NCBI RefSeq assembly: GCF_964213995.1
Contig: NC_135823.1
Coordinates: 3,224,001 to 3,288,000, forward strand
Length of the DNA: 64,000 nucleotides
Origin: Mustelus asterias
Lineage: Eukaryota
Direction of reading: 5' to 3'
Of this stretch, positions 4,252 to 64,000 are shown piece by piece. The position numbers and the translations under genes were made by a program. The notes under the pieces are model-generated. The model did no database searches and was not told the origin of the DNA. It saw nothing but the letters and a program-made list of their open reading frames with translations. Numbering within the stretch: the stretch's first letter is position 1; the number at the start of each line of letters is the position of its first letter.

Positions 4252-4310
4252 CTCTTCATTTTGTTCACAATACCACGAACCCGTTTGTGCATTGCGTGAT
4301 GTCTTGGTGC
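4252..4310 (-). CDS. Gene A exon 5, cytoplasmic mini-exon (GTKTSRNAQTGSWYCEQNEE)
   Basis: Acceptor ttttttatatacactag|GC, donor GAG|GTAAAT. Phase-compatible with the TM exon. Confidence 0.6.
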
Positions 4311-6853
4311 CTAGTGTATATAAAAAAGGCATTACAACTTGCACGGGGAACAGGTTAATTATTGTGTAGAGGAACAAACACATGTCAGCAAAGATATAGG
4401 GATGCTGAGCCGCACAGAACAGCAGAGTAGGCAGACACTTCCTACCTGAGCGCCGATTCCTGCAGTTCCAACCTGCCATAACAGCAAATATCATGAGAAG
4501 GACAATCATTACCAAGGAGCCTCCATAAAGCAGCCAATTGCAGGAGGATTCTAGTGGATCTGATGAAGAGGGGTAAAAATAACTTTGAAGAATTGTTTTA
4601 CTCAGGCCAGCGTGCACATGCCGAAATTTCAAGGACACCCACGAACCGTCAACTCAAAATTGAATGTCTCAAAGCCACGTTTTCAACTTTCACCAATGCA
4701 ACAGTTAGGAAGACAGGGAGGCTCATGAGCGATACTTAAGAGACAACAATGCAATCAGAGAATAATATTATTGGCAAAGTATCCAATTGCACAGAAGGAG
4801 GCAATAAAGGTTTCAATTCTTTGCTAGATCCGAGCTCTATCCCATTGCTTGGATGTCTCTGTGTAAACTTGCATCTATCTGAATAATCTGCCTTTAGCTT
4901 TTGCGAAAAAAAATGAATAATCTCTCATTTATCCGCATTATATTGCATTTGCCATGCAGTTGCACACTCACTGAACTTGTCTAAATCACACTGATGCATA
5001 TCTCCACCGTGCTTAAAACTCATCCTCCCACTCAGCTTTGAATCATCATTAAAATTAGAGATACAAAATTTAGTTCCCTCATCTCAATGGGCAATATATA
5101 TATATGTTTATATATTTATATATATTCATATATATATATATGTATATGGTAACTCAGTTTGCAGCTGGCGCAGACACGATGTGCCGAATGGTCCCTTCCT
5201 GTGACAGAGTCCTTTTACAGTTATGTGATCGCATGATGCCTGCATCCACACGTCAAAAAATTGAACAACCTTTAACATTAAATACACTATTGCTTACAAC
5301 GGATCTCACAGTAGCAATACATAAAGTGAATTTGCAAATAGTTACCTTGCTGACATGAGAACCCCTCGCTTATGAGGTTTTCAACTGTGGTGGTTTGAAC
5401 AGAACAAATAAAAACAGCCCCCTTGCTGCAGCTTTCTCGGGGGACTGTGAGCTGACTTCTGATACTGTACACCCCGGTGGAGTCTATTACTCCAGAATCC
5501 GTCCTCCCCTCTGTCTCCCTTGTGGAAACATTCCAGTGGACAGGAAGAGTAAGCGAGGTTGCGCCGCTCACCAAACACATCAATGGGACAGTTTCCATGG
5601 ACAGAATCTCAGCCGGCGGTGGACCCAAGAGGAATATTGTCGGAGGACCTAGTTCGGGAAGATGAAATTACTTTTCAGTATCAATTCCTACTTTTTAATG
5701 AGGAAATTAACTTATTTTTATTTGTTTCTACCTATCGTGAGCAACTTCGAGCCGTTTCCGAATATAAAGGACATCCCGTTAGATTTCCTTGCTGCGCAGT
5801 AATAAATGCCCGAATCATTTCTCTCAACATCTTCAATGATCAGAGTATAAACGGTCGAATCGCTGTTAACAGCACCCGAAAATCGCCCGTCTCCAGGGAT
5901 GTGTTTTCTGACGATATGAACAAACTGCAGATGTTCATGGTGCCGCTGTTTATACCAGTAAACCACTGCACTTGCGAACCAGCCTGTGTGGCAATGCACC
6001 TCAAAGCGACTTCCAGCCGAGACGGTCAGGACCGCTGGCGTTTGCGGGAACACCACCTGGGAGAAAATAACTGAGAAAAGAGGGCACATCAGCAGAAATT
6101 CCCCTTTTGTGAGCAAAATCCAAATTTTGACACAGAGAAATACAGAATTCCTCCTATAGCCGGGAGGTTAGTGATCCCAATCCGAAAATTAATCCTAACT
6201 TCCCGTTGGGTAAAGGACTGAGTTAATGTTTCGGTTAATATCTGATAAGACAGCTGGAGAGGCAGGAGAGGAGAGACATAAAAAGAGAGCAAGAGCATTG
6301 GAGCTAAGAGAGCACACATAAAGTAAGACAAAGGACTTGAAAGAAATCAAAGGATAGATAAAAGAGCAGAGAGAGAGAGCAACAGAGAGAAGGGACCGAG
6401 AGACATAAAAGAAAAGAAAGAATGGAAGGAGAAGAAAAGGAGCGAGGTAGGGGGAAAGTTATTTTCAGAGGCAATACTTTTGCAAGTTCAGTTCCTCTTG
6501 TATTGCAAGAAATGCAGCGAAGAATTTTTCACCAGCAAAATTCCACAAAAATAATGTGAGAACATCAGAAATTGAAGTTCTTTTGATGGGAGAGGTGAAC
6601 TCAGGATGAAGAAAACAACTCCATGATTTGTGTATAATCGTGATGAGGAGATGCGAATGTTTGTTCTATTTTATTTGAGCTTTTCATTATTGATTCCTTA
6701 AACATAGCACTATTACTACAGAATGCAGCAGTGTGATCTGCCACATACCTACGTTTCTCGGTAATCTGAGCCGGTTTGTCTCCCATGCATTAAAAAAAAA
6801 CTATTCTCACCTGGAAGGAGATGGAAGAGGGCACCGAGAGCCAGGAGGCCCAT
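4252..6853 (-). CDS. Gene A: non-rearranging antigen-receptor-like type I membrane protein (leader-VJ-C1-TM-cytoplasmic), 3' end incomplete
   Basis: Five exons join with GT-AG introns (phase 1,1,1,1, then a phase 0 donor) into a stop-free protein: MGLLALGALFHLLPVIFS|QVVFPQTP...DSGIYYCAARKSNGMSFIFGNGSKLLTI-GPPTIFLLGPP...CLVSG...WNVS...YSIRSQLTVP...FICSVQ...-DPLESSCNWLLYGGSLVMIVLLMIFAVMAGWNCRNRRS-GTKTSRNAQTGSWYCEQNEE. Confidence 0.88.
4446..4559 (-). CDS. Gene A exon 4, connecting peptide plus transmembrane segment
   Basis: Acceptor cttcatcag|AT, donor TCA G|GTAGGA. Encodes DPLESSCNWLLYGGSLVMIVLLMIFAVMAGWNCRNRRS, a hydrophobic stretch followed by basic stop-transfer residues. Confidence 0.88.
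5094..5146. repeat. (TA)n microsatellite in gene A intron 3
   Basis: Imperfect TA run visible directly. Confidence 0.85.
5346..5648 (-). CDS. Gene A exon 3, Ig C1-set domain
   Basis: Acceptor cccgaactag|GT, donor CAA G|GTAACT. Motifs PTIFLLGPP, LMCLVSG, VHWNVS, GVYSIRSQLTVP, GAVFICSVQ. Overlaps ORF 5287..5628. Confidence 0.92.
5732..6070 (-). CDS. Gene A exon 2, Ig V-set domain with germline-joined J motif
   Basis: Acceptor cttttctcag|TT, donor ATA G|GTAGAA. Contains B-strand Cys (FEVHC), WYKQ, RFSG, L-x-I-x-x-V, DSGIYYC and the J motif FGNGSKL. Overlaps ORF 5718..6116. Confidence 0.93.
6811..6853 (-). CDS. Gene A exon 1, signal peptide (MGLLALGALFHLLP)
   Basis: ATG at 6853, 43-bp hydrophobic exon ending CCA G|GTGAGA (phase 1), the typical split Ig/TCR leader. 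Confidence 0.85.
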
Positions 6854-11981: not shown

Positions 11982-13368
11982 GATGGTAATTATAGTCCGG
12001 TTATTCTTACATCGGTGGTTGGTAAATTGATGGAAATGGTCCTTAGGGATGGGATTTACGACCATTTAGAAAGATGCGGATTAATCCGGGATAGTCAGCA
12101 CGGATTCGTGAAGGGCAAGTCGTGCCTCACAAATTTGATTGAATTTTTTGAGGAGGTAACTAAGTGTGTTGATGAAGGTAAGGCAGTTGATGTCATATAC
12201 ATGGATTTTAGTAAGGCGTTTGATAAGGTCCCCCATGGTCGGCTTATGATGAAAGTAAGGAGGTGTGGGATAGAGGGAAAGTTGGCCGATTGGATCGGTA
12301 ACTGGCTATCTGATCGAAGACAGAGGGTGGTGGTGGATGGAAATTTTTCTGACTGGAGGCAGTTTGCTAGCGGAGTGACACAGGGATCAGTGCTTGGTCC
12401 TCTCCTCTTTGGGATTTTTATTAATGACTTAGAGGAGGGGGCTGAAGGGTGGATCAGTAAATTTGCTGATGACACCAAGATTGGTGGAGTAGTAGATGAG
12501 GTGGAGGGCTGTTGTAGGCTGCAAAGAGACATAGATAGGATGCAAAGCTGGGCTGAGAAATGGCAAATGGAGTTTAACCCTGATAAATGTGAGGTGATTC
12601 ATTTTGGTAGGACTAATTTAAATGAGGATTACAGGGTCAAATGTAAGGTTCTGAAGGCTGTGGAGGAACAGAGAGATCTTGGGGTCCATATCCACAGATC
12701 TCTAAAGGTTGCCACTCAAGTGGATAGAGCTGTGAAGAAGGCCTATAGTGTGTTAGCTTTTATTAACAGGGGGTTGGAGTTTAAGAGCCGTGGGGTTATG
12801 CTGCAACTGTACAGGACCTTGGTGAGACCACATTTGGAATATTGTGTGCAGTTCTGGTCACCTCACTATAAGAAGGATGTGGAAGCGCTGGAAAGAGTGC
12901 AGAGGAGATTGACCAGGATGCTGCCTGGTTTGGAGGGTAGGTCTTATGAGGAAAGGTTGAGGGAGCTAGGGCTGTTCTCTCTGGAGCGGAGGAAGCTGAG
13001 GGGAGACTTAATAGAGGTTTATAAAATGATGAAGGGGATAGATAGAGTGAACGTTCAAAGACTATTTCCTCGGGTGGATGGAGCTATTACAAGGGGGCAT
13101 AACTATAGGGTTCATGGTGGGAGATACAGGAAGGATATCAGAGGTAGATTCTTTACGCAGAGAGTGGTTGGGGTGTGGAATGGACTGCCTGCAGTGATAG
13201 TGGAGTCAGACACTTTAGGAACATTTAAGCGGTTATTGGATAGGCACATGGAGCACACCAGGATGATAGGGAGTGGGATAGCTTGATCTTGGTTTCAGAT
13301 AAAGCTCGGCACAACATCGTGGGCCGAAGGGCCTGTTCTGTGCTGTACTGTTCTATGTTCTATGTTCT
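11982..13368 (+). mobile_element. 5'-truncated young CR1 LINE with an uninterrupted 423-codon RT/C-terminal ORF
   Basis: ORF 12015..13286 with [57 protein letters not shown], and a (TTCTATG)n tail. Confidence 0.93.
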
Positions 13369-43225: not shown

Positions 43226-43274
43226 ATGGCCAAGCCATCGTTAACACTGATAATGATTTTCCAAGGGGTTTATG
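43226..43274 (+). CDS. Gene B exon 1, signal peptide (MAKPSLTLIMIFQGVY)
   Basis: actATGG start context, 49 bp, donor TAT G|GTAAGA (phase 1). Confidence 0.82.
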
Positions 43275-46200
43275 GTAAGACCTGGGCGACAATTTTCATT
43301 GAAAACATTTTAAATGGTAATCAGCCACGTTGAGATTTTGCCGAGCTGAAAAGCTGACTCAGTCATCAGGTGAAGTCGTTTGACCTGGTCATCTGACTTT
43401 ATTTTCTTTTCACGCCTGAAAAGCGAAATTGAAGAATAAACCTAACCAAAAATTATCATGGACAATAATGAGATTGTTATTATATTGAAGACGGAGATTT
43501 TTTTTTCTTAAAGCAGCTCCGTGATCATCCCCAGCATCCGTGTTTAGATAACAATAATCTCTCTATTTGCAGAATTATGTTCCTCTCTGTCTCAGAGTCC
43601 CTTCGCAATGACAGCTGAAGTCGGCCAGAAGGTAGAGTTATTCTGCCATTTAATTTACAAAGTGGAATTGGTGTCCAGCTTCGCTTGGTTCAAACAACAT
43701 GTGGGCGAAGGGCCGATGCCAATAGATACTACTTCCTGCACTGGGGATGATTGTAAGTTTATTTCTAAAAAAGGGAATCGGGAAAATGTATTGATTCTGG
43801 AAATGCGCAATATCCAAGTGAATGATTCGGGATCCTACTACTGTGCTCATGTAGCTAGCTATGCACCGCTCCAGAAGGCAGTGACACTGCTGGTTGGAGG
43901 TAAGAGAGCAAAGAAAATTAATTCGGATTGTGCACAGTATTATCATTGTGTGTAAATTATATCATTAACTCATTGTCCAAATCATTGTCCAGATAGTTCC
44001 ACCAACAAGTCGGCTGTGCTGGTATTTGTCCCTCCGGGTGAAGTGGATTTGAATGATGCCGTGCTCTTAGTGTGTATGGTCAGTGAAATCTCTTCCAACC
44101 AGATAGTTATTTTCTGGAATATTTCGGGCCTTGTCATTCATGGATGGAGCGATCCCGGGACAATGGAGGATGACGGGACATACAGCATCAGAAGTCACAT
44201 CATAGTGCCGAGCGAAACCTGGAGAAGTGGTGGTGTCTGTACTTGTATTGCTCAACTGGGGACTCCAGGGAAATATTGGACAAAAAGTGTGTCGTCCCCC
44301 AAAACAGCAGCGACTGGCACAGGTGAGTTTCAGGGATCGATTCTGGGACTTTTGTTGTTTGAAGTGCATATAAATGATTTGGAGGAACATGTAGCTGGTC
44401 TGAATAGTAGGTTCCCAGACGACACAAAAATGGTGGAGTTGCAGATAGTGAAGAGGATTATCAGAGGAGAGAGCGAGACATTGACCGGTTGGAGACTTGG
44501 GCAGAGAAATGGCAGATGGAGTTTAATCTGGACAAATGTGAGGTTATCATTTTGGAAGGTCCGATCCATGTAAGTATTATAGAGTATATAGTAGAACCCT
44601 TGGGATTATTGACATGCAGAGATATCTGACCGCACATGTCCAGTGATCACTGAAAGTGGCAGCGCAGATTGATAAGATAGTTAGGAAGGCATACATCATG
44701 CTTGACTTCATCAGTCGGGGCATTGAGTATAAGAATGGGCAGGTCATGCGGCAGCTGTACAGAAAGTTAGTTCGGCCTCATCTGGAACATCGTGTAGAAT
44801 TCTGGTCGCCATTCTACCAGAAGGATGTCGATGCTTTGGGGAGGGTGCAGAAGAAGTTTACCAGGATAGTGCCTGGCCTGGAAGGTATTAGCTTTGAGGA
44901 GAGGTTGGATGAACTCGGTTTGTTCTCACGATAAAGATGGAGGTTGAGTGGAGAACTGATAGTGGTTTGCAAGCTCATGAGCGGCATGGACATTGTGGAT
45001 AGTCAGATGCTCTATCCCATGATCGAAAAGTCAGGTCCGAGGTTTAAGGTTAATGGGGAAAAGGTTAGCGGAGAAGTGCGAGGCAAGTATTGTGCACAGA
45101 GGGTGCTAAGTGTCTGGAACGTGCTGCCTAGGAGGCAGTGGGAGGAGGTACGAAAGCGCTATTTAAGTGGCATCATGATGAATAAATGAATGGGATGGCG
45201 ATGGAAGCAGACACACTCCGTAAGTGCATACGGGTTTACTTTATGCTGGCATCATGATTGGCGTAGGCTTGCAGGGCCGAAGCGCCTGCTCCTGTGCTGT
45301 ACTCCTCTCTGTTCTTTGTCTTGTTCCACAAAGATGGTTGAAATTCAAGTTATTATCAGTTGGAGTAATGCAATAGAATATAAACACCTGAAGTCCTTTA
45401 ATTAAGCACAAGAGCTAGCCAACTAATATTTCTCCAGCGCCCTGTCATATATTCCTTCACTCAGAATATTTTTATGTTATTGGAAGTTGCTTTTGAATCA
45501 GCCTGCACACCTTCTTTCGGACAGTGGATTTTGGAACTGGGTTCTGCACATTCTACACTGGATGCGCTTTACACGCAGGCAATAAAGAAGAATAGAAGCT
45601 GTTTGTAACAACAGGCTTGTTTCCGAACACTGTCATTCATTTTTATTTTTAATTTCCAGAATCTAATTTCTCACGCTTAAAATTCTGCCTAAAATATGTT
45701 TGAAGTTCCGTTTTACTTTCTGGTATGTGCATTATTTTGGAACATTCCAATCAGGTTCTCACCTTCAAAGAAATTCGATACTGAGAGGTCCCAAGCTTAC
45801 TATTCGGAAAAACAATATTGAGGGGACTGGCTCTTTTTGTGCACAAATCATTGAATGGAGCAGGATGGTTACTAAAGAATACAGCATACCAAGCATTAGA
45901 AAAAGGAGCAGTGAGTTCAACAAGAAAGTAATGATCAACACTTACAGTACTTTGGGTTGTCTCAAATCAGGGCACAGCATGTTCTGAATAATATGAGGTC
46001 CTTGGAAACAGTGCAGATAAGAGTCACGAGAATGGCACGAAGAATGAGGAAATTACATTGTGTGCATTAGTTGGCGTACTGCAATGTTCGCTTTGGAGTT
46101 TGCAATGTTGTGAGAGTTTCGGAAGTGGGGCTTCCAGATGATGAGTGGTGCGGACATGGTAGACAGAGAGACACTATTTTTCACGATCGAAAGTTATGGA

Positions 46201-49200
46201 ACCAGAGGGCAGAAATCTTTTGGAATTAGCAGAGAAATAAACAGCAATATGATGAAGAAGCCTTCTGTAGTGATAATGTTCTTCATTTCGAATGCACTGC
46301 CTGAGGGTGAGGCAGTACAACGGCAGCTTTCAAAAGAGAATTGGCCAGTGATCTGAAAAGGAAGGACTTGCTCGTTGACGAGAAAAGGCAGGAGAGTGGG
46401 ACTAAGCGGGATATTCTTACAGAGAGAACAACACAATGGGCTGAATGGCCTGCTTTGTGCTGTAATCATTCCATGTTTCATTTTGTTGTTCGAGATGGGA
46501 AGGTAAAATGAAAGTGTTGCATAAAGATAAATGGACCCTGGATGTATGCTGAGTAATCGAGTCCAGAAATAAGGGGAGTTATTTTATGTTAAACAGTCAT
46601 GGACAAGTTTGCAGTGTGGTCAACAGTTCCGTGCACCGCTTTTTGGGGAAGAATGTGAAAGATGGAGAGAAGGTGCAGAGAGGAATTAACGCTATTGGAC
46701 AACTTCAGCCAATGTGGGGAGACTGGAGAAAATGGGATTGTAGTCCTTACAACAGTGAAGATTATGTGCTTAATATAATCGCGATATGGATTAAGCAAGA
46801 GAAAGAAGCGATGCCCAGTGGCAGGAGGTCAGTAACAAAAGAGACACAGATTGAAGAAAATTGGCAAACAAAAACAGGGATGATGAGGAGATTATTTGTT
46901 ACACGGTGAGTTTTGTGACCTGGAGCATGTCTGAAAGGGCGATGGGAGCATTTTTGATGATAAACTTCACAAGGGGACTTGCATAAATCCTCAAAGGGGA
47001 AAAGTGTACGAGACCATCCGGGAAATGCCACAAAGTGATGGAGGCTGGTTGGACGGATTTTTCAAGAAGCCGAGACCCGAAAAGTCAGTCTGTTTCAATC
47101 TGTGACTGTCTTTTCTAATAAGACATTCACACAATGCTTTCATCATTCAAACTGATGCAATCTGAACGAGAAACCATCCTGACAGAGCTGTCTGATATTT
47201 GATCTGAACTAGCAAACATTATGTCATTTATTCCAATCGTTGCTGTCTCATTTCATTATCATTTGAAATTTATTTCCGGTTTCACACCCGAGTTTCAGAC
47301 ACCAAAATTTAAATTGGAAAAGTTCACCAATTGTGATTCCAAGAAAATTGTTATCTGACTGTTGTGAGGTTCAATAGATTAAATTTAAATTAAGGATTCG
47401 AATGTTAGAATTTGGTGTTTGTAAAATTATTTTAAAAGAATGTAAAACGCTAAGGGGAAAGCATTGCATTAATCTGTTAATAGAAGGTGGCGATTTATTC
47501 TGTGCTTAGAAATTTAAAAAAACATGCAGGATCATATGGGGTCCCTGAATGAAACATTTTTATCGAAGGGCCAGGCACCAATGTTGCCAAAACAACAAAG
47601 AGGCTTTTGATTTTTTTTTAAATTCTGCCAAACACCCTTAATCATGCACTTGAAAACCAGCAACGCATTAGATTTAAATTTGATTGTTTTGGCAACGTGG
47701 CACTAATGCTATTGTAGGGGATGCCGCCATGTCATTGCAGGTATAAAAGAAGAGTCAATGGGACAAAAAGTGGAGAAAGCAACTCACATTTGCCTCATCC
47801 GTGTCTCAAGGGGAATCCTCATCTCGATAGAAAAGGCACCAAAGAGGACAAAGGTTTCAGACAGAAGAATCAATAGAGAAATCGGAGAATATTCTGGAAG
47901 ACGCCAAACCTGGGTGTAATCGAGAGAGTGATTAAATTCTATTTTTTTGTTAATAAGTGGGAATTGTATTCATATAAACAAAATTCCATTAGAATTGAGT
48001 TTTATTCGGTTCATTAATCGTTTAGTTAACCCGTTCACTGTTTGTTAGATTTTTAAAAATCGTTACTTGTTGACTTTCGAGAGTGTTAGGTATTTTGATT
48101 TATCCACTCAAAGTTGCTCAAGAGCAAATCGCAAAACTTCACACACACTTACAAAGATAATGAGGTAAGCTACTCCTCTTTGAGTGGTTTAGTATTAGTT
48201 CTCTGAGGGGGGGGGGGGGGGGCGGGGATCCACCTCCGTTTTATAACGTTGACCCAGGACAGTTTCTCAGTGTTTTCTCTCTGCAGGGTGGTGCAGTATG
48301 AAACATCCCATTGTCATAACTGTCCTCGTGATTCTGATTCTCCTCTTGGTCCTTCTGTCCATCTGGGTTTGCAAAAGCGACAGATCAGGTGAGAGTTAAT
48401 GTTTAGAACGACATTGGCGTTTTTGTTTGTTCTAATGTGATTCTCATCATGTTGTTTAATATTGCTAACTGCAGTTTATTCTTGCAGGAGGACGCAGCAA
48501 GGAAATACAGAATGAAAAGTGAGTAACATAACCATTTGCAAAGTGCGTCAAGAACACCCTTTCTGTATTTAACACTGTGAAATCCCGTTCAGCTTCAACA
48601 CTGATTCTAATGGTATGGTTTTGCATTCTCCCTGATATTTATGGACCAACACTAAAGCCATTGGAAAATACTGTTCTAAACCAATTCTGACATCTGGGTC
48701 AGGATGAGCAAGAGATCTTTATACATTTTGTCCTTATCCAGTATTAGGTTGGCAGAAACAACATCACGACGGGTGCGGAAAGAGCGGCAAACAGGTGAGT
48801 TGCTTTGAAATGTTGGCATAGATTAAACATCAAATGCGGGGAATTCAAAAATTGAAAAAGGCATTACCTGCCAGAAAAATACATTCTTCATTCAATCTCT
48901 TCGCTATTGGTCCCATTATGCCAACAATGTATCAGTGGGTCAGTGGAAGACATACATGGTGGGAAGGTTACTCCAGTGGAAATTGGTCTCCTTTCAGTAT
49001 TGCTTGACAAGTGGTGTATTGAGCTTATGAGCCTTCTTTGGATGTTTTTCCCATTGAAATGTGGGTACAATTGATGCAATGTGCCATTGGCACATTAAGT
49101 GATAGTTGGCTCCCGATGTCCATAATCATAGAATCCGTACAGTACAGAAGGAGGCCATTCGGCCCATCGGGTCTGCTGCGACAGCAATCCCACCCAGGCC

Positions 49201-52678: not shown

Positions 52679-52752
52679 GGCGGCACGGTAGCACAGTGGT
52701 TAGCACTGCTGCTTCAGAGCTCCAGGGGCCTGGGTTTGATTCTCGGATTGGC
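52679..52752 (+). mobile_element. HE1-type SINE 5' head (tRNA-related part only)
   Basis: GGCGGCACGGTAGCACAGTGGTTAGCACTGCTGCTTCAGAGCTCCAGGGGCCTGGGTTTGATTCTCGG, cut off by the satellite. Confidence 0.8.
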
Positions 52753-52755
52753 GGA

Positions 52756-53444
52756 GTGGAGTCTCACACTCTCTCTCAGTACACAGACTGGAGTCTCACA
52801 CTCTCTCTCAGTACACTGACAGGAGTCTCACACTCGCTCTCAGTTCACTGACGAGAGTCTCACACTCTCTCTCAGTACACCGACTGGAGTCTCACACTCT
52901 CTCTCAGTACACTGGAGTCTCACACTCTCTCTCAGTACACTGGAGTCTCACACTCTCTCTCAGTATACTGGAGTCTCACACTCTCTCTCAGTACACTGAC
53001 TGGAGTCTCACACTCTAGCTCAGTACACAAACTGGAGTCTCACACTCTAGCTCAGTACACTGACTGGAGTCTCACATTCTCTCTCAGTACACAGGAGTCT
53101 CACTCTCTCAGTACACTGACTGGAGTCTCACACTCTAGCTCAGTACACTAACTGGAGTCTCACACTCTCAGTACACTGACTGGAGTCTCACACTCTCTCT
53201 CAGTACACTGACTGGCATCTCACACTTTCTCTCAGTGCACTGACCGGTGTCTCAGGCTATCCCTGAATACACTGACTGGAGTCTCTCTCCCTTCCTCACA
53301 GTCCTGCTCTTGCACTCTCTCTCTCTCTCTCTCAGCACACTGACTGCAGTCTCATACTTGCACTCAGTACACTGACCGGAGTCTCAGACTATCCCTGAGT
53401 GCACTGACTGGAGTATCTCTCCCTTCCTCACTGTTCTGCTCTTG

Positions 53445-53480
<36 letters not shown>

Positions 53481-56400
53481 ACACTGACTGCAGTCTCATA
53501 CTTGCTCTCAGTACAGTGACTGGAGTCTCATATTCTCGCTCTGTACACTGACTGGAGTCTCACACTCGCTCTCAGTACACTGACAGGAGTCTCACTCTAT
53601 CAGTACACGGACTGGAGTCTCACACTCTCAGTACACTAACTGTAGTCTCACACTCTCTCTGAGTACACTGACTGGAGTCTCACACTCTCTCTCAGTACAC
53701 TGACTGGAGTCTCACTCTCTCAGTACACTGACTGGAGTCTCACACTCTCTCTCAGTACAGTGACTGGAGTCTCACACTCTCTCTCTGTACACTGACAGGA
53801 GTCCCATACTCTCGCTCTGTACACTGACTGGAGTGTCAGACTCGCTCTTAGCACACTGACTGGAGTCTCACACTCTCGCTCTGTACACTGACTGGAGTCT
53901 CAGACTCGCTCTCAGTACACTGACAGGAGTCTCACACTCTCAGTACACTGACTGGAGTCTCACACTCTCAGTAGACTGACTGGAGTCTCACACTCTCTCT
54001 CAGTACACTGACAGGAGTCTCACTCTCTCAGTGCACTGACAGGAGTCTCACTCACTCTCTCAGTACACTGACAGGAGTCTCACTCTCTCAGTACACTGAC
54101 TGGAGTCTCACACTCCCTCTCCGTACTCTGACTGGAGTTTAACACTCTCTCTCAGTATACTGACTGGAGTCTCACTCTCTCTCTCTCTCAGTACAGTGAC
54201 TGGAGTCTCACACTCTCTCTCAGTACAGTGACTGGAGTCTCTCACTCTCTCTCAGTATACCGACAGGAGTCTCACACACCCTCTCAGTACACTGACTGGA
54301 GTCTCACACTCTCTCTCAGTACACTGACAGGAGTCTCACTCTCTCAATACACTGACTGGAGTCTCACACTCCCTCTCCGTACACTGACTGGAGTTTAACA
54401 CTCTCTCTCAGTATACTGACTGGAGTCTCACTCTCTCTCTCTCAGTACAGTGATTGGAGTCTCTCACTCTCTCTCAGTATACTGACAGGAGTCTCACACA
54501 ACCTCTCAGTACACTGACTGGAGTCTCACACTCTCTCTCAGTACACTGACAGGAGTCTCACTCTCTCAGTACACTGACTGGAGTCTCACACTCCCTCTCC
54601 ATACACTGACGAGTTTAACACACTCTTTCAGTATACTGACTCGAGTCTCACTCTCTCTCTCTCTCTCTCTCTCAGTACAGTGACTGGAGTCTCAGACTCT
54701 CTCTCAGTACAGTGACTGGAGTCTCTCACACTCTCTCAGTATACTGACAGGAGTCTCACACACCCTCTCAGTACAATGACTGGAGTCTCACACACTCAGT
54801 ACACTGACTGGAGTCTCACACTCTCTCTCAGTACAACGACTGGAGTCTCACACTCTCTCCCAGTACACTGGAGTCTCAAACTCTCTCTCATTACACTGAC
54901 TGGCGCCTCACACTTTCTCTCAGCACACTGACCGGTGTCTCAGACGATCCCTGAATACACTGACTGGAGTCTCTCTCCCTTCCTCACTGTTCTGCTCTTG
55001 CACTGTCTCTCTCTCTCTCTCAGTACACTGACAGGAGTCTCACACTCTCTCTCAGTACACTGATTGGAGACTCACACTCTCTCTCAGTACACTGAACGGA
55101 GTCTCAGACTCTCTCTCAGTACACTGACAGGAGACTCAAACTCTCTCTCATTACACGGACTGGCGTCTCACACTTTCTCACAGTACACTGACCGGTGTCT
55201 CAGGCTATCCCTGAATAAACTGATTGGAGTCTCTCTCCCTTCCTCACTGTTCCGCTCTTGCACTGTCTCTCTCTCTCTCTCACTCTCTCTCTCAGTACAC
55301 TGACAGGAGTCTCACACTCTCTCTCAGTACACTGACTGGAGTCTCACACACGCTCTCAGTACACTGACAGGAGTCTCACACTCTCAGTACACTGACTGGA
55401 GTCTCACACTCTCTCTCAGTACACTGATTGGAGTCTCCCACTCTCTCTCGCAGTCCACTGACTGGAGTCGCACACTCTCTCTCAGTACACTGATTGGAGT
55501 CTCACACTCTCTCTCAGTACACTGACTGGAGTCACACACTCTCTCTCAGTACACTGATTGGTGTCTCACACTCTCTCTCAGTACACTGATTTGAGTCTCA
55601 CACTTTCAGTACACTGACTGGAGTCTCACACTCTCTCCCAGTGCACTGCCTGAAGGCTCACACACTCCCTCATTACACTGACTGGCGTCTCACACTTTCT
55701 CTCAGTACCCTGACCGGCGTCTCAGGCTATCCCTGAATAGACTGATTGGAATCTCTCTCCCTTCCTCACTGTTCCGCTCTTGCACTGTCTCTCTCTCTCT
55801 CTCTCTCAGTACACTGACTGCAGTCTCATACTTGCTCTCAGTACACTGACAGGAGTCTCACACTCTCAGTACACTGACAGGAGTCTCACACTCTCAGTGC
55901 ACTGACAGGAGTCTCAAACTCTCTCTCAGTGCACTGACAGGAGTCTCACACTCGCTATCAGTACACTGACAGGAGTCTCAAACTCTCTCTCAGTACACTG
56001 ACTGGAGTCTCACACTCGCTATCAGTACACTGACAGGAGTCTCACACTCTCAGCACACTGACTGGAGTCTCACAATCTCTCTCAGTACACTGACTGGAGT
56101 CTCACACTCTCTCTCAGTACACTGACTGGAGTCTCACAATCTCTCTCAGGACACTGACTGGAGTCTCACACTCTCTCTCAGTACACTGACTGGAGTCTCA
56201 CACGCGCTCTCAGTACACTGACTGGAGTCTCACACTCTCTCTCAGTACACTGCTTGGAGTTTACACTTTCTCTCAGTACACTGACTGGTTTCTCAGGCTA
56301 TCCCTGAGTACACTGACTGGAGTCTCTCTCCCTTCCTCACTGTTACGCTCTTGCATTGTGTCCCTCTCTCTCTCTCTCTCTCTCTCAGTACACTGACTGC

Positions 56401-56842
56401 AGTCTCATATTTGCACTCAGTACACTGACAGGAGTCTCACATCTCTCTCAGTACACTGACCGGAGTCTCAGACTATCCCTGACTGCACTGACTGGAGTAT
56501 CTCTCCCTTCCTCACTATTCTGCTCTTGCTCTCTCTCTCTCTCTCTCTCTCTCCCTCTCTCTCTCTCAGGACACTGACTGGGGTCTCGTAATTGCTCTCA
56601 GTACATTGACAGGAGTCTCACACTCTCTCTCAGTACACTGACTGGAGTCTCACACTCTCTCTCAATACACTGACTGGAGTCTCACACTTTCTCTCAGCAC
56701 ACTGACTGCAGTCTCATACTTGCTCTCAGTACACTGACTGGAGTCTCACACTCTCTCTCAGTACACTGACCGGGGTGTCTCAGGCTATCCCTGAATACAC
56801 TGACTGGAGTCTCTCTCCCTTCCTCACTGTTCTGCTCTTGCA

Positions 56843-56877
<35 letters not shown>

Positions 56878-57769
56878 CACTGACTGCAGTCTCATACTTG
56901 CTCTCAGTACACTGATTGGAGACTCACACTCTCTCTCAGTACACTGACTGGAGTCTCACACTCTCAGTACACTGACTGGAGTCTCAAACTCTCTCTCAGT
57001 ACACTGACTGGAGTCTCACACTCGCTCTCAGTACACTGACTGGAGTCTCAAACTCTATCTCAGTACACTGACTGGAGTATCTCTCCCTTCCTCACTATTC
57101 TGCTCTTGCACTGTCTCTCTCTCTCAGTACACTGACTGGAGTCTCACACTCGCTCTCAGTGCACTGACAGGAGTCTCACACTCTCTCTCAGTGCACTGAC
57201 TAGAGTCTCACACTCTCTCTCAGTACACTGACAGGAGTCTCACACTCTCTCTCAGTACACTGACTGGAGTCTCACACTCTCTCTCAGTACACTGACTGGA
57301 GTCTCACACTCTCTCTCAGTACACTGACTGGAGTCTCACACTCTCTCTCAGTACACTGACTGGAGTCTCACACTCTCTCTCAGTACACTGACTGGAGTCT
57401 CACACGCGCTCTCAGTACACCGACTGGAGTCTCACACTCTCTCTCAGTACACTGACTGGAGTCTCACACTCTCTCTCAGTACACTGCTTGGAGTCTTACA
57501 CTTTCTCTCAGTACACTGACTGGTTTCTCAGGCTATCCCTGAGTACACTGACTGGAGTCTCTCTCCCTTCCTCACTGTTACGCTCTTGCATTGTGTCCCT
57601 CTCTCTCTCTGTCTCTCTCTCTCTCAATACACTGACTGCAGTCTCATATTTGCACTCAGTACACTGACAGGAGTCTCACATTTCTCTCAGTACACTGACC
57701 GGAGTCTCAGACTATCCCTGAGTGCACTGACTGGAGTATCTCTCCCTTCCTCACTATTCTGCTCATGCA

Positions 57770-57808
<39 letters not shown>

Positions 57809-60698
57809 CACTGACTGCAGTCTCATACTTGCTCTCAGTACACTGACAGGAGTCTCACTCTCTCAGTACACTGACTGGAGTCTCACGCTCTCTCTCAGTA
57901 CACTGACTGGAGTTTCACTCTCTCTCAGTACACTGACTGGAGTCTCACACTCTCTCTCAGTACAGTGACTGGAGTCTCACACTCTCTCTCTGTACACTGA
58001 CAGGAGTCTCATACTCTCGCTCTGTACACTGACTGGAGTCTCAGACTCTCTCTCAGTACACTGATTGGTGTCTCACACTCTCTCTCAGTACACTGATTGA
58101 AGTCTCACACTTTCAGTACACTGACTGGAGTCTCACAGTCTCCCTCATTACATTGACTGGTGTCTCACACTTTCTCTCAGTACAGTGACTGGAGTCTCAC
58201 GCTCTCTCTCTGTGCACTGACAGGAGTCTCATACTCTCGCTCTGTACACTGACTGGAGTCTCAGACTCTTTCTCAGTACACTGACCGGCGTCTCAGGCTA
58301 TCCCTGAATAGACTGACTGGAGTCTCTCTCCCTTCCTCACTGTTCCGCTCTTGCACTGTCTCTCTCTCTCTCTCTCTCTCAGTACACTGACTGCAGTCTC
58401 ATACTTGCTCTCAGTAAACTGACAGGAGTCTCAAACTCTCTCTCAGTGCACTGACTGGAGTCTCACACTCGCTATCAGTACACTGACTGGAGTCTCACAC
58501 TCTCTCTCAGTACACTGACTGGAGTCTCACACTCGCTCTCAGTACACTGACTAGAGTCTCACACTCTCTCAGTACACTGCTTGGAGTCTTACACTTTCTC
58601 TCAGTACACTGACTGGTTTCTCAGGCTATCCCTGAGTACACTGACTGGAGTCTCTCTCCCTTCCTCACTGTTACGCTCTTGCATTGTGTCCCTCTCTCTC
58701 TCTCTCTCTCTCAGTACACTGACTGCAGTCTCATATTTGCACTCAGTACACTGACAGGAGTCTCACTTCTCTCTCAGTACACTGAACGGAGTCTCAGACT
58801 ATCCCTGAGTGCACTGACTGGAGTCTCTCTCCCTTCCTCACTATTCTGCTCTTGCTCTCTCTCTCTCTCTCCCTATCTCTCTCTCAGGACACTGACTGGG
58901 GTCTCGTAATTGCTCTCAGTACATTGACAGGAGTCTCACACTCTCTCTCAGTACACTGACTGGAGTCTCACACTCTCTCTCAATACACTGACTGGAGTCT
59001 CACACTTTCTCTCAGTACACTGACTGGAGTCTCACACGTTCTCTCAGTACACTGACCGGGGTGTCTCAGGCTATACCTGAGTGTACTAACTGGAGTATCT
59101 CTCCCTTCCTCACTATTCTGCTCTTGCACTGTCTCTCTCTCTCAGGACACTGACTGGGGTCTCATACTTGCTGTCAGTGCATTGACAGGAGTCTCACACT
59201 CGCTCTCAGTGCATTGACAGGAGTCTCACACTCGCTCTCAGTGCATTGACAGGAGTCTCACTCTCTCAGTACACTGACTGAGGTCTCACACTCTCTCTCA
59301 GTTCAGTGACTGGAGTCTCACACTCTCTCTCAGTACACTGACTGGAGTTTCATACCCTCGCTCTATACACTGACTGGAGTCTCATACTCTCAGTACACTG
59401 ACTGGAGTCTCACACTCTCAGTACACTGACTGGAGTCTCACACTCTCTCTCAGTACACTGACTGGAGTCTCACACTCTCAGTACACTGACTGGAGTCTCA
59501 TACTCGCTCTCAGTACACTGATTGGAGTCTCACACTCTCTCTCAGTACACTGACAGGAGTCCCACTCTATCAGTACACGGACTGGAGTCTCACACTCTCA
59601 GTACACTAACTGTAGTCTCACACTCTCTCTGAGTACACTGACTGGAGTCTCACGCTCTCTCTCAGTACAGTGACTGGAGTCTCACACTCTCTCTCTGTAC
59701 ACTGACAGGAGTCTCACACTCTCTCTCAGTACAGTGACTGGAGTCTCACGCTCTCTCTCAGTACACTGACTGGAGTCTCACACTCTCTCTCAGTACAGTG
59801 ACTGGAGTCTCACACTCTCTCTCTGTACACTGACAGGAGTCTCATACTCTCGCTCTGTACACTGACTGGAGTCTCAGACTCGCTCTTAGCACACTGACTG
59901 GAGTCTCACACTCTCGCTCTGTACACTGACTGGAGTCTCAGACTCGCTCTCAGTACACTGACAGGAGTCTCACACTCGCAGCACACTGACTGGAGTCTCA
60001 CACTCTCTCTCAGTGCACTGACAGGTGTCTCACTCTCAGTACACTGACTGGAGTCTCACACTCTCTCTCAGTACACTGACTGGAGTCTCACACTCTCTCT
60101 CAGTACACTGCTTGGAGTTTACACTTTCTCTCAGTACACTGACTGGTTTCTCAGGCTATCCCTGAGTACACTGACTGGAGTCTCTCTCCCTTCCTCACTG
60201 TTACGCTCTTGCATTGTGTCCCTCTCTCTCTCTCTCTCTCTCAGTACACTGACTGCAGTCTCATATTTGCACTCAGTACACTGACAGGAGTCTCACATCT
60301 CTCTCAGTACACTGACCGGAGTCTCAGACTATCCCTGACTGCACTGACTGGAGTATCTCTCCCTTCCTCACTATTCTGCTCTTGCTCTCTCTCTCTCTCT
60401 CTCTCTCTCCCTCTCTCTCTCTCAGGACACTGACTGGGGTCTCGTAATTGCTCTCAGTACATTGACAGGAGTCTCACACTCTCTCTCAGTACACTGACTG
60501 GAGTCTCACACTCTCTCTCAATACACTGACTGGAGTCTCACACTTTCTCTCAGCACACTGACTGCAGTCTCATACTTGCTCTCAGTACACTGACTGGAGT
60601 CTCACACTCTCTCTCAGTACACTGACCGGGGTGTCTCAGGCTATCCCTGAATACACTGACTGGAGTCTCTCTCCCTTCCTCACTGTTCTGCTCTTGCA

Positions 60699-60741
<43 letters not shown>

Positions 60742-61535
60742 CACTGACTGCAGTCTCATACTTGCTCTCAGTACACTGACTGGAGTCTCACACTCTCTCT
60801 CAGTACACTGACTGGAGTCTCACACTCTCAGTACACTGACTGGAGTCTCAAACTCTCTCTCAGTACACTGACTGGAGTCTCACACTCGCTCTCAGTACAC
60901 TGACTGGAGTCTCAAACTCTATCTCAGTACACTGACTGGAGTATCTCTCCCTTCCTCACTATTCTGCTCTTGCACTGTCTCTCTCTCTCAGTACACTGAC
61001 TGGAGTCTCACACTCGCTCTCAGTGCACTGACAGGAGTCTCACACTCTCTCTCAGTACACTGACTGGAGTCTCACACTCTCTCTCAGTACACTGACTGGA
61101 GTCTCACACTCTCTCTCAGTACACTGACTGGAGTCTCACACTCTCTCTCAGTACACTGACTGGAGTCTCACACGCGCTCTCAGTACACCGACTGGAGTCT
61201 CACACTCTCTCTCAGTACACTGACTGGAGTCTCACACTCTCTGTCAGTACACTGCTTGGAGTCTTACACTTTCTCTCAGTACACTGACTGGTTTCTCAGG
61301 CTATCCCTGAGTACACTGACTGGAGTCTCTCTCCCTTCCTCACTGTTACGCTCTTGCATTGTGTCCCTCTCTCTCTGTCTCTCTCTCTCTCAATACACTG
61401 ACTGCAGTCTCATATTTGCACTCAGTACACTGACAGGAGTCTCACATTTCTCTGAGTACACTGACCGGAGTCTCAGACTATCCCTGAGTGCACTGACTGG
61501 AGTATCTCTCCCTTCCTCACTATTCTGCTCATGCA

Positions 61536-61576
<41 letters not shown>

Positions 61577-64000
61577 CACTGACTGCAGTCTCATACTTGC
61601 TCTCAGTACACTGACAGGAGTCTCACTCTCTCAGTACACTGACTGGAGTTTCACTCTCTCTCTCTCAGTACACTGACTGGAGTCTCACACTCTCTCTCAG
61701 TACAGTGACTGGAGTCTCACACTCTCTCTCTGTACACTGACAGGAGTCTCATACTCTCGCTCTGTACACTGACTGGAGTCTCAGACTCTCTCTCAGTACA
61801 CTGATTGGTGTCTCACACTCTCTCTCAGTACACTGATTGAAGTCTCACACTTTCAGTACACTGACTGGAGTCTCACAGTCTCCCTCATTACATTGACTGG
61901 TGTCTCACACTTTCTCTCAGTACAGTGACTGGAGTCTCATGCTCTCTCTCTGTACACTGACAGGAGTCTCATACTCTCGCTCTGTACACTGACTGGAGTC
62001 TCAGACTCTTTCTCAGTACACTGACCGGCGTCTCAGGCTATCCCTGAATAGACTGACTGGAGTCTCTCTCCCTTCCTCACTGTTCCGCTCTTGCACTGTC
62101 TCTCTCTCTCTCTCTCTCAGTACACTGACTGCAGTCTCATACTTGCTCTCAGTAAACTGACAGGAGTCTCAAACTCTCTCTCAGTGCACTGACTGGAGTC
62201 TCACACTCGCTATCAGTACACTGACTGGAGTCTCACACTCTCTCTCAGTACACTGACTGGAGTCTCACACTCGCTCTCAGTACACTGACTAGAGTCTCAC
62301 ACTCTCTCAGTACACTGCTTGGAGTCTTACACTTTCTCTCAGTACACTGACTGGTTTCTCAGGCTATCCCTGAGTACACTGACTGGAGTCTCTCTCCCTT
62401 CCTCACTGTTACGCTCTTGCATTGTGTCCCTCTCTCTCTCTCTCTCTCTCTCTCAGTACACTGACTGCAGTCTCATATTTGCACTCAGTACACTGACAGG
62501 AGTCTCACTTCTCTCTCAGTACACTGAACGGAGTCTCAGACTATCCCTGAGTGCACTGACTGGAGTCTCTCTCCCTTCCTCACTATTCTGCTCTTGCTCT
62601 CTCTCTCTCCCTATCTCTCTCTCAGGACACTGACTGGGGTCTCGTAATTGCTCTCAGTACATTGACAGGAGTCTCACACTCTCTCTCAGTACACTGACTG
62701 GAGTCTCACACTCTCTCTCAATACACTGACTGGAGTCTCACACTTTCTCTCAGTACACTGACTGGAGTCTCACACGTTCTCTCAGTACACTGACCGGGGT
62801 GTCTCAGGCTATGCCTGAGTGTACTAACTGGAGTATCTCTCCCGTCCTCACTATTCTGCTCTTGCACTGTCTCTCTCTCTCTCAGGACACTGACTGGGGA
62901 CTCATACTTGCTGTCAGTGCATTGACAGGAGTCTCACACTCGCTCTCAGTGCATTGACAGGAGTCTCACACTCGCTCTCAGTGCATTGACAGGAGTCTCA
63001 CTCTCTCAGTACACTGACTGAAGTCTCACACTCTCTCTCAGTTCAGTGACTGGAGTCTCACACTCTCTCTCAGTACACTGACTGGAGTTTCATACCCTCG
63101 CTCCATACACTGACTGGAGTCTCATACTCTCAGTACACTGACTGGAGTCTCACACTCTCAGTACACTGACTGGAGTCTCACACTCTCTCTCAGTACACTG
63201 ACTGGAGTCTCACACTCTCAGTACACTGACTGGAGTCTCATACTCGCTCTCAGTACACTGATTGGAGTCTCACACTCTCTCTCAGTACACTGACAGGAGT
63301 CTCACTCTATCAGTACACGGACTGGAGTCTCACACTCTCAGTACACTAACTGTAGTCTCACACTCTCTCTGAGTACACTGACTGGAGTCTCACGCTCTCT
63401 CTCAGTACAGTGACTGGAGTCTCACACTCTCTCTCTGTACACTGACAGGAGTCTCACACTCTCTCTCAGTACAGTGACTGGAGTCTCACGCTCTCTCTCA
63501 GTACACTGACTGGAGTCTCACACTCTCTCTCAGTACAGTGACTGGAGTCTCACACTCTCTCTCTGTACACTGACAGGAGTCTCATACTCTCGCTCTGTAC
63601 ACTGACTGGAGTCTCAGACTCGCTCTTAGCACACTGACTGGAGTCTCACACTCTCGCTCTGTACACTGACTGGAGTCTCAGACTCGCTCTCAGTACACTG
63701 ACAGGAGTCTCACACTCGCAGCACACTGACTGGAGTCTCACACTCTCTCTCAGTGCACTGACAGGTGTCTCACTCTCAGTACACTGACTGGAGTCTCACA
63801 CTCTCTCTCAGTACACTGACTGGAGTCTCACACTCTCTCTCAGTACACTGCTTGGAGTTTACACTTTCTCTCAGTACACTGACTGGTTTCTCAGGCTATC
63901 CCTGAGTACACTGACTGGAGTCTCTCTCCCTTCCTCACTGTTACGCTCTTGCATTGTGTCCCTCTCTCTCTCTCTCTCTCTCAGTACACTGACTGCAGTC
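52756..64000. repeat. Satellite array, 32-bp monomer CAGTACACTGACTGGAGTCTCACACTCTCTCT with variant monomers and a higher-order repeat; runs off the window end
   Basis: Clean 32-bp period at e.g. 57253/57285. CT tract length varies, and variant monomers (CAGGCTATCCCTGA, CCCTTCCTCACTGTT) recur. Confidence 0.97.

Follow-up and report, generated by a model that had tools for sequence, protein, structure and literature searches.

A non-rearranging VJ-C1 receptor gene with a germline-fixed CDR3 in the shark Mustelus asterias, probably of the PRARP kind

The window, by which we mean the whole 64-kb stretch of Mustelus asterias DNA that was analyzed, holds two related genes, gene A and gene B, which lie head-to-head some 36 kb apart and share the same exon plan (Table 1). 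For gene A, an earlier note made from the sequence alone had claimed that a complete V domain, CDR3 and J motif are encoded in one germline exon ending in a phase-1 donor, with the C1 exon following after only 83 bp, and both statements are borne out by the open reading frame, by Pfam and by a spliced contig. The VJ exon (6070-5732 on the reverse strand) is a single open exon reading ...DSGIYYCAARKSNGMSFIFGNGSKLLTI, which comprises the V domain, the CDR3 and an FGNG J-like strand. Its translation runs through YYC-AARKSNGMSFI-FGNGSKLLTI up to the phase-1 donor, G/GTAGAA at 5732/5731, and at its other border a polypyrimidine tract with a CAG acceptor extends to 6071. Pfam assigns a V-set domain to the VJ exon (E 2.7e-15) and a C1-set domain to the C1 exon (E 2.7e-08).

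Table 1. Exons and other features of genes A and B, numbered by position in the window
Feature	Position	Strand	Evidence
Gene A leader exon (split leader, phase 1)	6811..6853	-	P0001 residues 1-14 = 6853-6812, then G/GTGAG; X3 loose end
Gene A VJ exon (V-set domain and CDR3, J-like G strand with FGNG, phase-1 donor)	5732..6070	-	ORF, Pfam, X3 contig, P0001
Gene A GT-AG intron, 83 nt, without RSS	5649..5731	-	Skipped in X3 contig
Gene A C1-set exon	5346..5648	-	Pfam, X3 contig, P0001
Gene A connecting peptide (conserved Cys) and uncharged TM helix exon	4446..4559	-	P0001 mapping; X3 loose end
Gene A cytoplasmic exon	4252..4310	-	P0001 mapping
Gene A last exon (TLYAHL and stop)	L066 4188-4144, about 5.8 kb left of the window	-	P0001 mapping
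Gene B leader exon	43226..43274	+	tblastn of P0200, 87.5% identity
Gene B VJ exon (additional Cys pair; no FGxG in J-like strand)	43573..43899	+	ORF, Pfam
Gene B C1 exon, after 93-nt intron	43993..44322	+	ORF, Pfam
Gene B TM exon (Cys, then uncharged helix; end approximate)	48287..48388	+	ORF, tblastn
Gene B tail exons	~48490, ~48740, ~49521	+	Low-stringency tblastn, scans

Public run X3 yielded a 1000-nt contig that matches 6073-5730 and 5646-5346 without a differing letter and skips the 83 nt in between. The VJ exon is therefore transcribed, and it is spliced in unaltered form. The CDR3 in the contig equals that of the germline, an invariance to be read in the light of the fact that assembled contigs hide rare variants. 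The transcript evidence for gene A is this one assembled contig, from a set of four runs of one study and from a run without a recorded kind or tissue. Splicing of the leader, TM and tail exons rests on the loose ends of the contig, which match the leader and TM exons of gene A, and on the RefSeq model P0001 (Mustelus asterias, labelled 'immunoglobulin gamma-1 heavy chain-like'), which is 100% identical over the VJ exon.

The absence of a recombination signal sequence (RSS) at the V/J junction, likewise claimed from the sequence alone, is confirmed by direct scanning. Between the second Cys of gene A and the start of C1, no RSS was found, the closest words to a heptamer and to a nonamer each differing at 3 positions, and a scan of the whole window returned 8 degenerate RSS-like words, all beyond position 13,000. 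As a control, a similar scan detected RSSs in 8 of 12 split Ig/TCR-type V loci and in 0 of 2 joined lambda-type loci. Here and below, the locus labels kappa, sigma, lambda, TCR, UrIg-like and CD8-beta-like are our own, presumed from characteristic motifs and from RSS spacing. One kappa-type locus (L046) carries two 12-spacer RSS copies about 630 nt apart, at 1278 and 1906; the near-identical L047 has one. Gene A is a real, transcribed, non-rearranging VJ-C1 receptor gene.

The product of gene A is a V-C1-TM protein of 300 aa, with a TM segment that contains no charged residue and is preceded by a Cys, and with a tail that ends in TLYAHL, a motif that we take to fit the ITIM/ITSM pattern. Across 24 A-type proteins, C235, the cysteine of the connecting peptide, is invariant and Y289 nearly so. 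The AlphaFold model consists of two Ig domains and a TM helix (234-264), with a mean pLDDT of 76. Among the matches listed, a fold search with gene A gave mostly antibody Fab chains, and a sequence search of the PDB gave only antibodies and TCRs.

Gene B differs from gene A in its V domain, which has an additional pair of cysteines in the C'-C'' region, and in its J-like strand; instead of FGxG, most B-type paralogues have NG in this strand, which is absent in the window copy. The last exon of gene B was not found by low-stringency tblastn or by scans reaching 30 kb past the window; it may be concealed in a tandem repeat array, long and of low complexity, that lies downstream of the gene at about 52700-64000. 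A duplicate of the A/B pair lies on another contig (C73; L002/L062 and L022/L063), with its members 2.2 Mb apart. In its A copy the V donor is gone and the C1 exon runs for only some 20 codons before an interruption, whereas RefSeq model P0200 shows the B copy to be intact, with a V domain 91% identical to that of gene B in the window.

The two genes belong to a large family: gene A is one of about 48 family copies with relatives across jawed vertebrates, a fact that the first reading of the sequence had overlooked. Counting distinct places, there are at least 24 A-type V exons (23 on C23, the contig of the window, and 1 on C73) and at least 24 B-type V exons (22 on C23, 1 on C73 and 1 on C3499), both being lower bounds obtained by scoring the best 150 of 972 and the best 150 of 355 candidates, respectively. 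The two types are intermingled on C23, where the main cluster lies mostly at 0.08-1.71 Mb and the pair in the window stands 1.5 Mb off, at 3.23-3.27 Mb. The GT donor falls exactly 67 nt past the second Cys in 14 of the 20 A loci examined (the other six comprise three in register with a mutated donor, one with a deletion and two without an anchor) and 58 nt past it in 17 of the 21 B loci examined. Loci of either type that are off register have a mutated donor, a deletion, a frameshift or no anchor, and none of them terminates in an RSS; every intact family copy examined is a joined VJ. An RSS-like word with 3 or fewer mismatches occurs in 6 of 45 family loci, never at the V end, and in the L003 pseudogene one such word overlaps the J-like strand.

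The earlier note had named in advance the finding that would speak against its reading, namely close split V/J relatives flanked by RSSs elsewhere in the genome. We found no such homologue: the nearest non-family V among the matches listed is a split light-chain V of 39% identity (E 7.5e-8), and a DNA search of the genome with the gene A CDR3/J matched gene A itself and the joined C73 copy only.

With respect to its genomic surroundings, the C23 cluster was considered for a position like human 1q23 or 19q13, which the marker searches leave unsupported: UFC1 lies on C17, SNRNP70 on C21, nicastrin is unplaced, and ERCC1 was not found in the marker searches of the genome. All 140 of 140 MHC class I matches fall on C8, none on C23. 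In 40 sampled stretches of 10 kb on C23 (400 kb), no host neighbour genes were detected, the 145 candidate ORFs yielding only mobile-element domains. Between the main cluster and the window, at about 2.26 Mb, lies an endogenous-retrovirus-like element (L132 2720-6570) with RNase H and envelope HR1-HR2 Pfam domains.

By sequence search, relatives were found in numerous sharks and rays. A profile search returned further ones, and the 30 of its matches with names looked up include those of chimaera, sturgeons, paddlefish, bichirs, lungfish, coelacanth, caecilian, newt, Xenopus, turtles and lizards; no bird or mammal proteins were among these 30. The relatives outside sharks are known here from proteins, the joined VJ exon having been read on DNA in the Mustelus asterias genome only. 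Several variants were observed among the relatives. In one batoid A-type lineage (P0022-P0026 and P0038) the CDR3 is shorter by four residues (Cys-to-Phe 8 versus 12), and the ray A-type proteins P0030 and P0032 keep the distance of 12. P0046 consists of V, TM and tail without C1, and the lungfish protein P0086 is V-V-C1. The B-type proteins P0056, P0209 and P0218 from other sharks have an Arg at the TM start and no tail Tyr; in this they resemble activating forms, such as one would expect among paired receptors.

For the phylogenetic position of the family, we built trees of the C1 and V domains, each of about 100 columns. In the C1 tree (58 rows), the 36 family rows, which were picked by a profile of A itself, lie on one side of a branch (100/99), apart from all sampled outgroups. 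These outgroups are IgL, IgH, one TCR-beta-like sequence, UrIg-like sequences and MHC class II, a sample that does not extend to the alpha, gamma and delta chains of the TCR, to SIRP or to tapasin; one chimaera row has no C domain. In the V tree (63 rows, with CDR3/J removed), the family falls on one side with weak values (67/83), A-type rows from sharks to lizards group together at 90/92, and the V rows that we presume to be UrIg-like form a separate group (100/99). Forcing shark A together with lambda V was rejected by the AU test (p-AU 0.005), as was forcing it together with IgL C (p-AU 0.004).

These results bear on the possibility that gene A is a shark-specific, germline-joined Ig light chain that acquired a membrane anchor. 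Such joined chains do exist in sharks, including on C13 of the Mustelus asterias genome, and many relatives of gene A are labelled Ig light or heavy chain-like in databases. However, in addition to its rejection by both AU tests, this explanation is at odds with the occurrence of the family in bony vertebrates, and with a V-to-C distance below 0.2 kb in the family compared to 1.9-4.8 kb for the 7 lambda loci that allowed it to be measured. Moreover, of 11 lambda loci 10 have a promoter octamer at a constant position, whereas among 11 A loci 1 does and gene A has none, a comparison to be read with the three kappa-type control loci, 3/3 of which are also without an octamer in the range scanned. 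We therefore regard an anchored light chain as highly improbable. Assignment of gene A to IgL was rejected, considering that its C exon does not end the protein, a TM following instead, and that its V and C are not nested in an IgL isotype; assignment to the TCR chains was rejected for want of RSS-flanked split V/J segments and of a basic TM residue with a short tail. The initial judgment that gene A is none of IgL, IgH or TCR thus stands, the VJ exon being fixed in the germline and without a close split homologue in our searches.

A more difficult matter is whether the exon was never split or was joined long ago. The earlier note had favoured a never-split exon on account of the short intron and the paralogue B; the part of this argument that stands is descent from one joined ancestor, and these two features do not tell whether that ancestor was once split. 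Nor does the geometry of the junction. The Cys-to-Phe distance of 12 and the Cys-to-donor distance of 67 nt are the same in gene A and in 8 of the 10 distinct germline-joined lambda-type exons that have a readable J motif (a V was found in 11 of 22 lambda loci). Because these exons share the spacing of gene A, junction geometry is not diagnostic, and after this control we rejected fixed CDR3 length as proof of a never-split origin; the fixed junction length therefore speaks for common descent only. What can be said with more confidence is that the exon is not a recent shark germline join, given the AU tests, the trees and the relatives in bony vertebrates. Any joining event must predate both the shark/bony-vertebrate split and the duplication into A and B.

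An event of that age could have been a domesticated rearrangement, in which RAG joined V and J in the germline of a jawed-vertebrate ancestor, after which the chain gained a TM and an inhibitory tail and was duplicated into A and B. Such an origin would agree with the spacing shared with the joined lambda-type exons, with the split leader and phase-1 exons typical of Ig and TCR, and with the predominance of antibody Fab chains among the fold matches listed; RAG-like joining in shark germ cells is, moreover, on record (PMC2193156). The same paper describes how germline joining was inferred from joined genes nested among near-identical split genes, and reports that joined genes retain the octamer. 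Gene A, in contrast, has neither a split sister nor an octamer, its family is not nested in any sampled Ig or TCR group, and the event would have to be placed before the shark/bony-vertebrate split. We consider an ancient join unlikely, and a never-split origin of the gene A exon is favoured but unproven.

In 12 intact paralogues from the cluster, dN/dS is 0.96 in the CDRs (bootstrap 0.71-1.27) versus 0.38 in the frameworks, which fits relaxed or diversifying selection on the CDRs. A comparison of the CDR3 across shark species, proposed in the earlier note, shows that the CDR3 of gene A is identical in two catsharks (11/11 residues in two Scyliorhinus orthologues), whereas that of the cluster paralogues varies. 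Over all CDRs, 29 of 32 residues are identical to these orthologues, compared to 58/77 and 55/77 in the frameworks and 58/100 and 61/100 in C1. The excess of CDR over framework conservation is borderline (Fisher p 0.11 and 0.044), and reaches 0.003 for one orthologue when frameworks and C1 are combined. CDRs kept across species in this manner hint that gene A likely sees a conserved ligand.

Prediction of an A+B ectodomain complex, in which the C73 B copy (P0200, V 91% identical to that of window gene B) was used, lends weak support to pairing. The score was 0.48, with 0.02 for the best control, a contact agreement of at least 78% and a partner pLDDT of at least 73. Of 78 solved pairs, 51 attained the mark, as did 2 of 108 mismatched ones, and scores of 0.60 or below comprise only 5 of the 78 solved pairs and all 4 mismatches that passed. 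Resemblance to Fab/TCR structures may account for the pass.

We read the gene A exon as the germline-fixed binding domain of a spliced V-C1-TM gene, likely coding for an inhibitory immune receptor, whose product is predicted to form a TCR-shaped dimer with a B-type chain and which probably belongs to the PRARP family. We put the probability of this reading at roughly 75%. On such a reading, the chain would reach the cell surface, would be linked via its membrane-proximal Cys to a partner (a B-type chain or a second copy of itself), and would bind its ligand with fixed CDR loops. Judging from the anatomy of the tail, its Tyr could then recruit SHP-type phosphatases and bring about inhibition, and the diversity of the family would come from gene duplication rather than from RAG. 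A bolder extension, which we hold to be doubtful, is that the A/B family is the surviving never-split sister of the rearranging receptors, a two-chain membrane VJ-C1 system nearer in build to the TCR/BCR ancestor than UrIg. In sharks, dozens of chains whose CDRs diversify would then make up a germline repertoire, in which gene A might serve as a conserved framework chain for a self ligand (MHC-like or B7-like).

The interest of such genes lies in the origin of rearrangement: single-exon VJ genes are candidates for the gene that was split by the RAG transposon, and looking for them is described as a long-standing interest (PMC12227049). A membrane-bound VJ-C1 pair in sharks enlarges this set of candidates. 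In addition, databases mislabel members of the family as Ig chains. The family has probably already been named. Being transcribed and intact, with CDRs kept across species, gene A is a good experimental handle, for which a ligand could be sought directly.

Among known systems, the closest in build is PRARP. PRARP proteins are V-C1-TM molecules with an ITIM/ITSM-like tail that form disulfide-linked dimers, are expressed in lymphocytes, and occur in fish, amphibians and reptiles. PRARP1 and PRARP2 were reportedly described in chicken by Fu et al. in 2019, and VJC1 genes in Xenopus by Ohta et al. in 2019. According to PMC10751288 and PMC11599192, PRARP is a joined-VJ, non-rearranging IgSF gene pair. 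The PRARP/VJC1 genes and gene A have in common a V and J-like strand in one germline exon without RSS, an arrangement of two related, linked, non-rearranging genes (here A and B, head-to-head), a V-C1-TM protein with an ITIM/ITSM-like tail, and relatives in bony fish, amphibians and reptiles. They differ in that the family described here has about 48 copies with diversified CDRs, and B forms with a TM Arg and short tail in other sharks. On the basis of architecture and distribution, the gene A family is probably of the PRARP kind and a new shark member of it.

Two departures from this assignment are conceivable, namely that the same gene anatomy belongs to a separate, undescribed family other than PRARP, or that the chains act as SIRP-like monomers or homodimers instead of A/B heterodimers. 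No sequence named PRARP was returned by any database search, the supplements of PMC10751288 and PMC12227049 contain no PRARP or matching LOC ids, and neither a database name nor a paper was found that links gene A proteins to PRARP; a literature search that reached few subscription papers found no description of the shark cluster. The lack of a bird protein among the 30 profile-search matches with names looked up also fits a separate family, and the weak support for an A+B complex would suit monomers or homodimers. On the other hand, the two-gene layout of VJ, C1, TM and tyrosine motif, with its range of amphibians, reptiles and fish, matches PRARP, and A and B types occur on contigs of equal size in several species. 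We therefore judge these departures somewhat unlikely, and retain membership of the PRARP family as the preferred reading.

UrIg and UrIg2 resemble gene A in being non-rearranging elasmobranch genes with a split leader and a single-exon VJ followed by C1-type domains. UrIg has three C domains and is secreted, and UrIg2 has nine C domains in nurse shark, G-strand cysteines and linkage to an Ig/TCR complex (PMC12227049). Instead of three or more C1 domains, gene A has one, spliced straight to a TM exon and followed by a tail with a tyrosine motif; UrIg-type V domains stand apart from that of gene A in the trees, and the gene A contig C23 differs from those of the UrIg2-like locus (C16) and the MHC (C8). 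The UrIg2-like locus (L059, about 64.42 Mb on C16) is likely to be UrIg2, since its V exon is joined, carries a CxC motif in the G strand and is followed by several C1 exons; its contig is not the IgH/TCR-alpha-delta-like contig C71.

The germline-joined shark light chains (lambda/type II and joined NS4) share with gene A a joined VJ without RSS, an equal CDR3 length and the donor position. They have no TM or tail, a V-C intron of kilobases and a promoter octamer, in each of which gene A is the opposite. Furthermore, joined NS4 genes have split sisters (PMC2193156), whereas none was found for gene A. TCR chains share with gene A the layout of V, C1, connecting-peptide Cys and TM as well as the existence of two chain types, but gene A has no RSS and no charged TM residue, and, where TCR chains couple to CD3, has a tyrosine motif in a tail some 37 residues long.

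Lastly, several other receptors have a V domain of the joined VJ type. CD8, NKp30 and CD79 have no C1 domain, SIRP-alpha has two, and the second domain of NITR is I-type; both SIRP and NITR occur in inhibitory and activating forms. In the Mustelus asterias genome, L055, at about 175.91 Mb on C1, is a further joined VJ exon, containing FGxG and having a donor, which we presume to be CD8-beta-like. PMC11599192 lists CD8, NKp30, CD79, SIRP and NITR together as joined-VJ receptors, and gene A shares this type of V domain with all of them, joined in its case to a single C1 domain.
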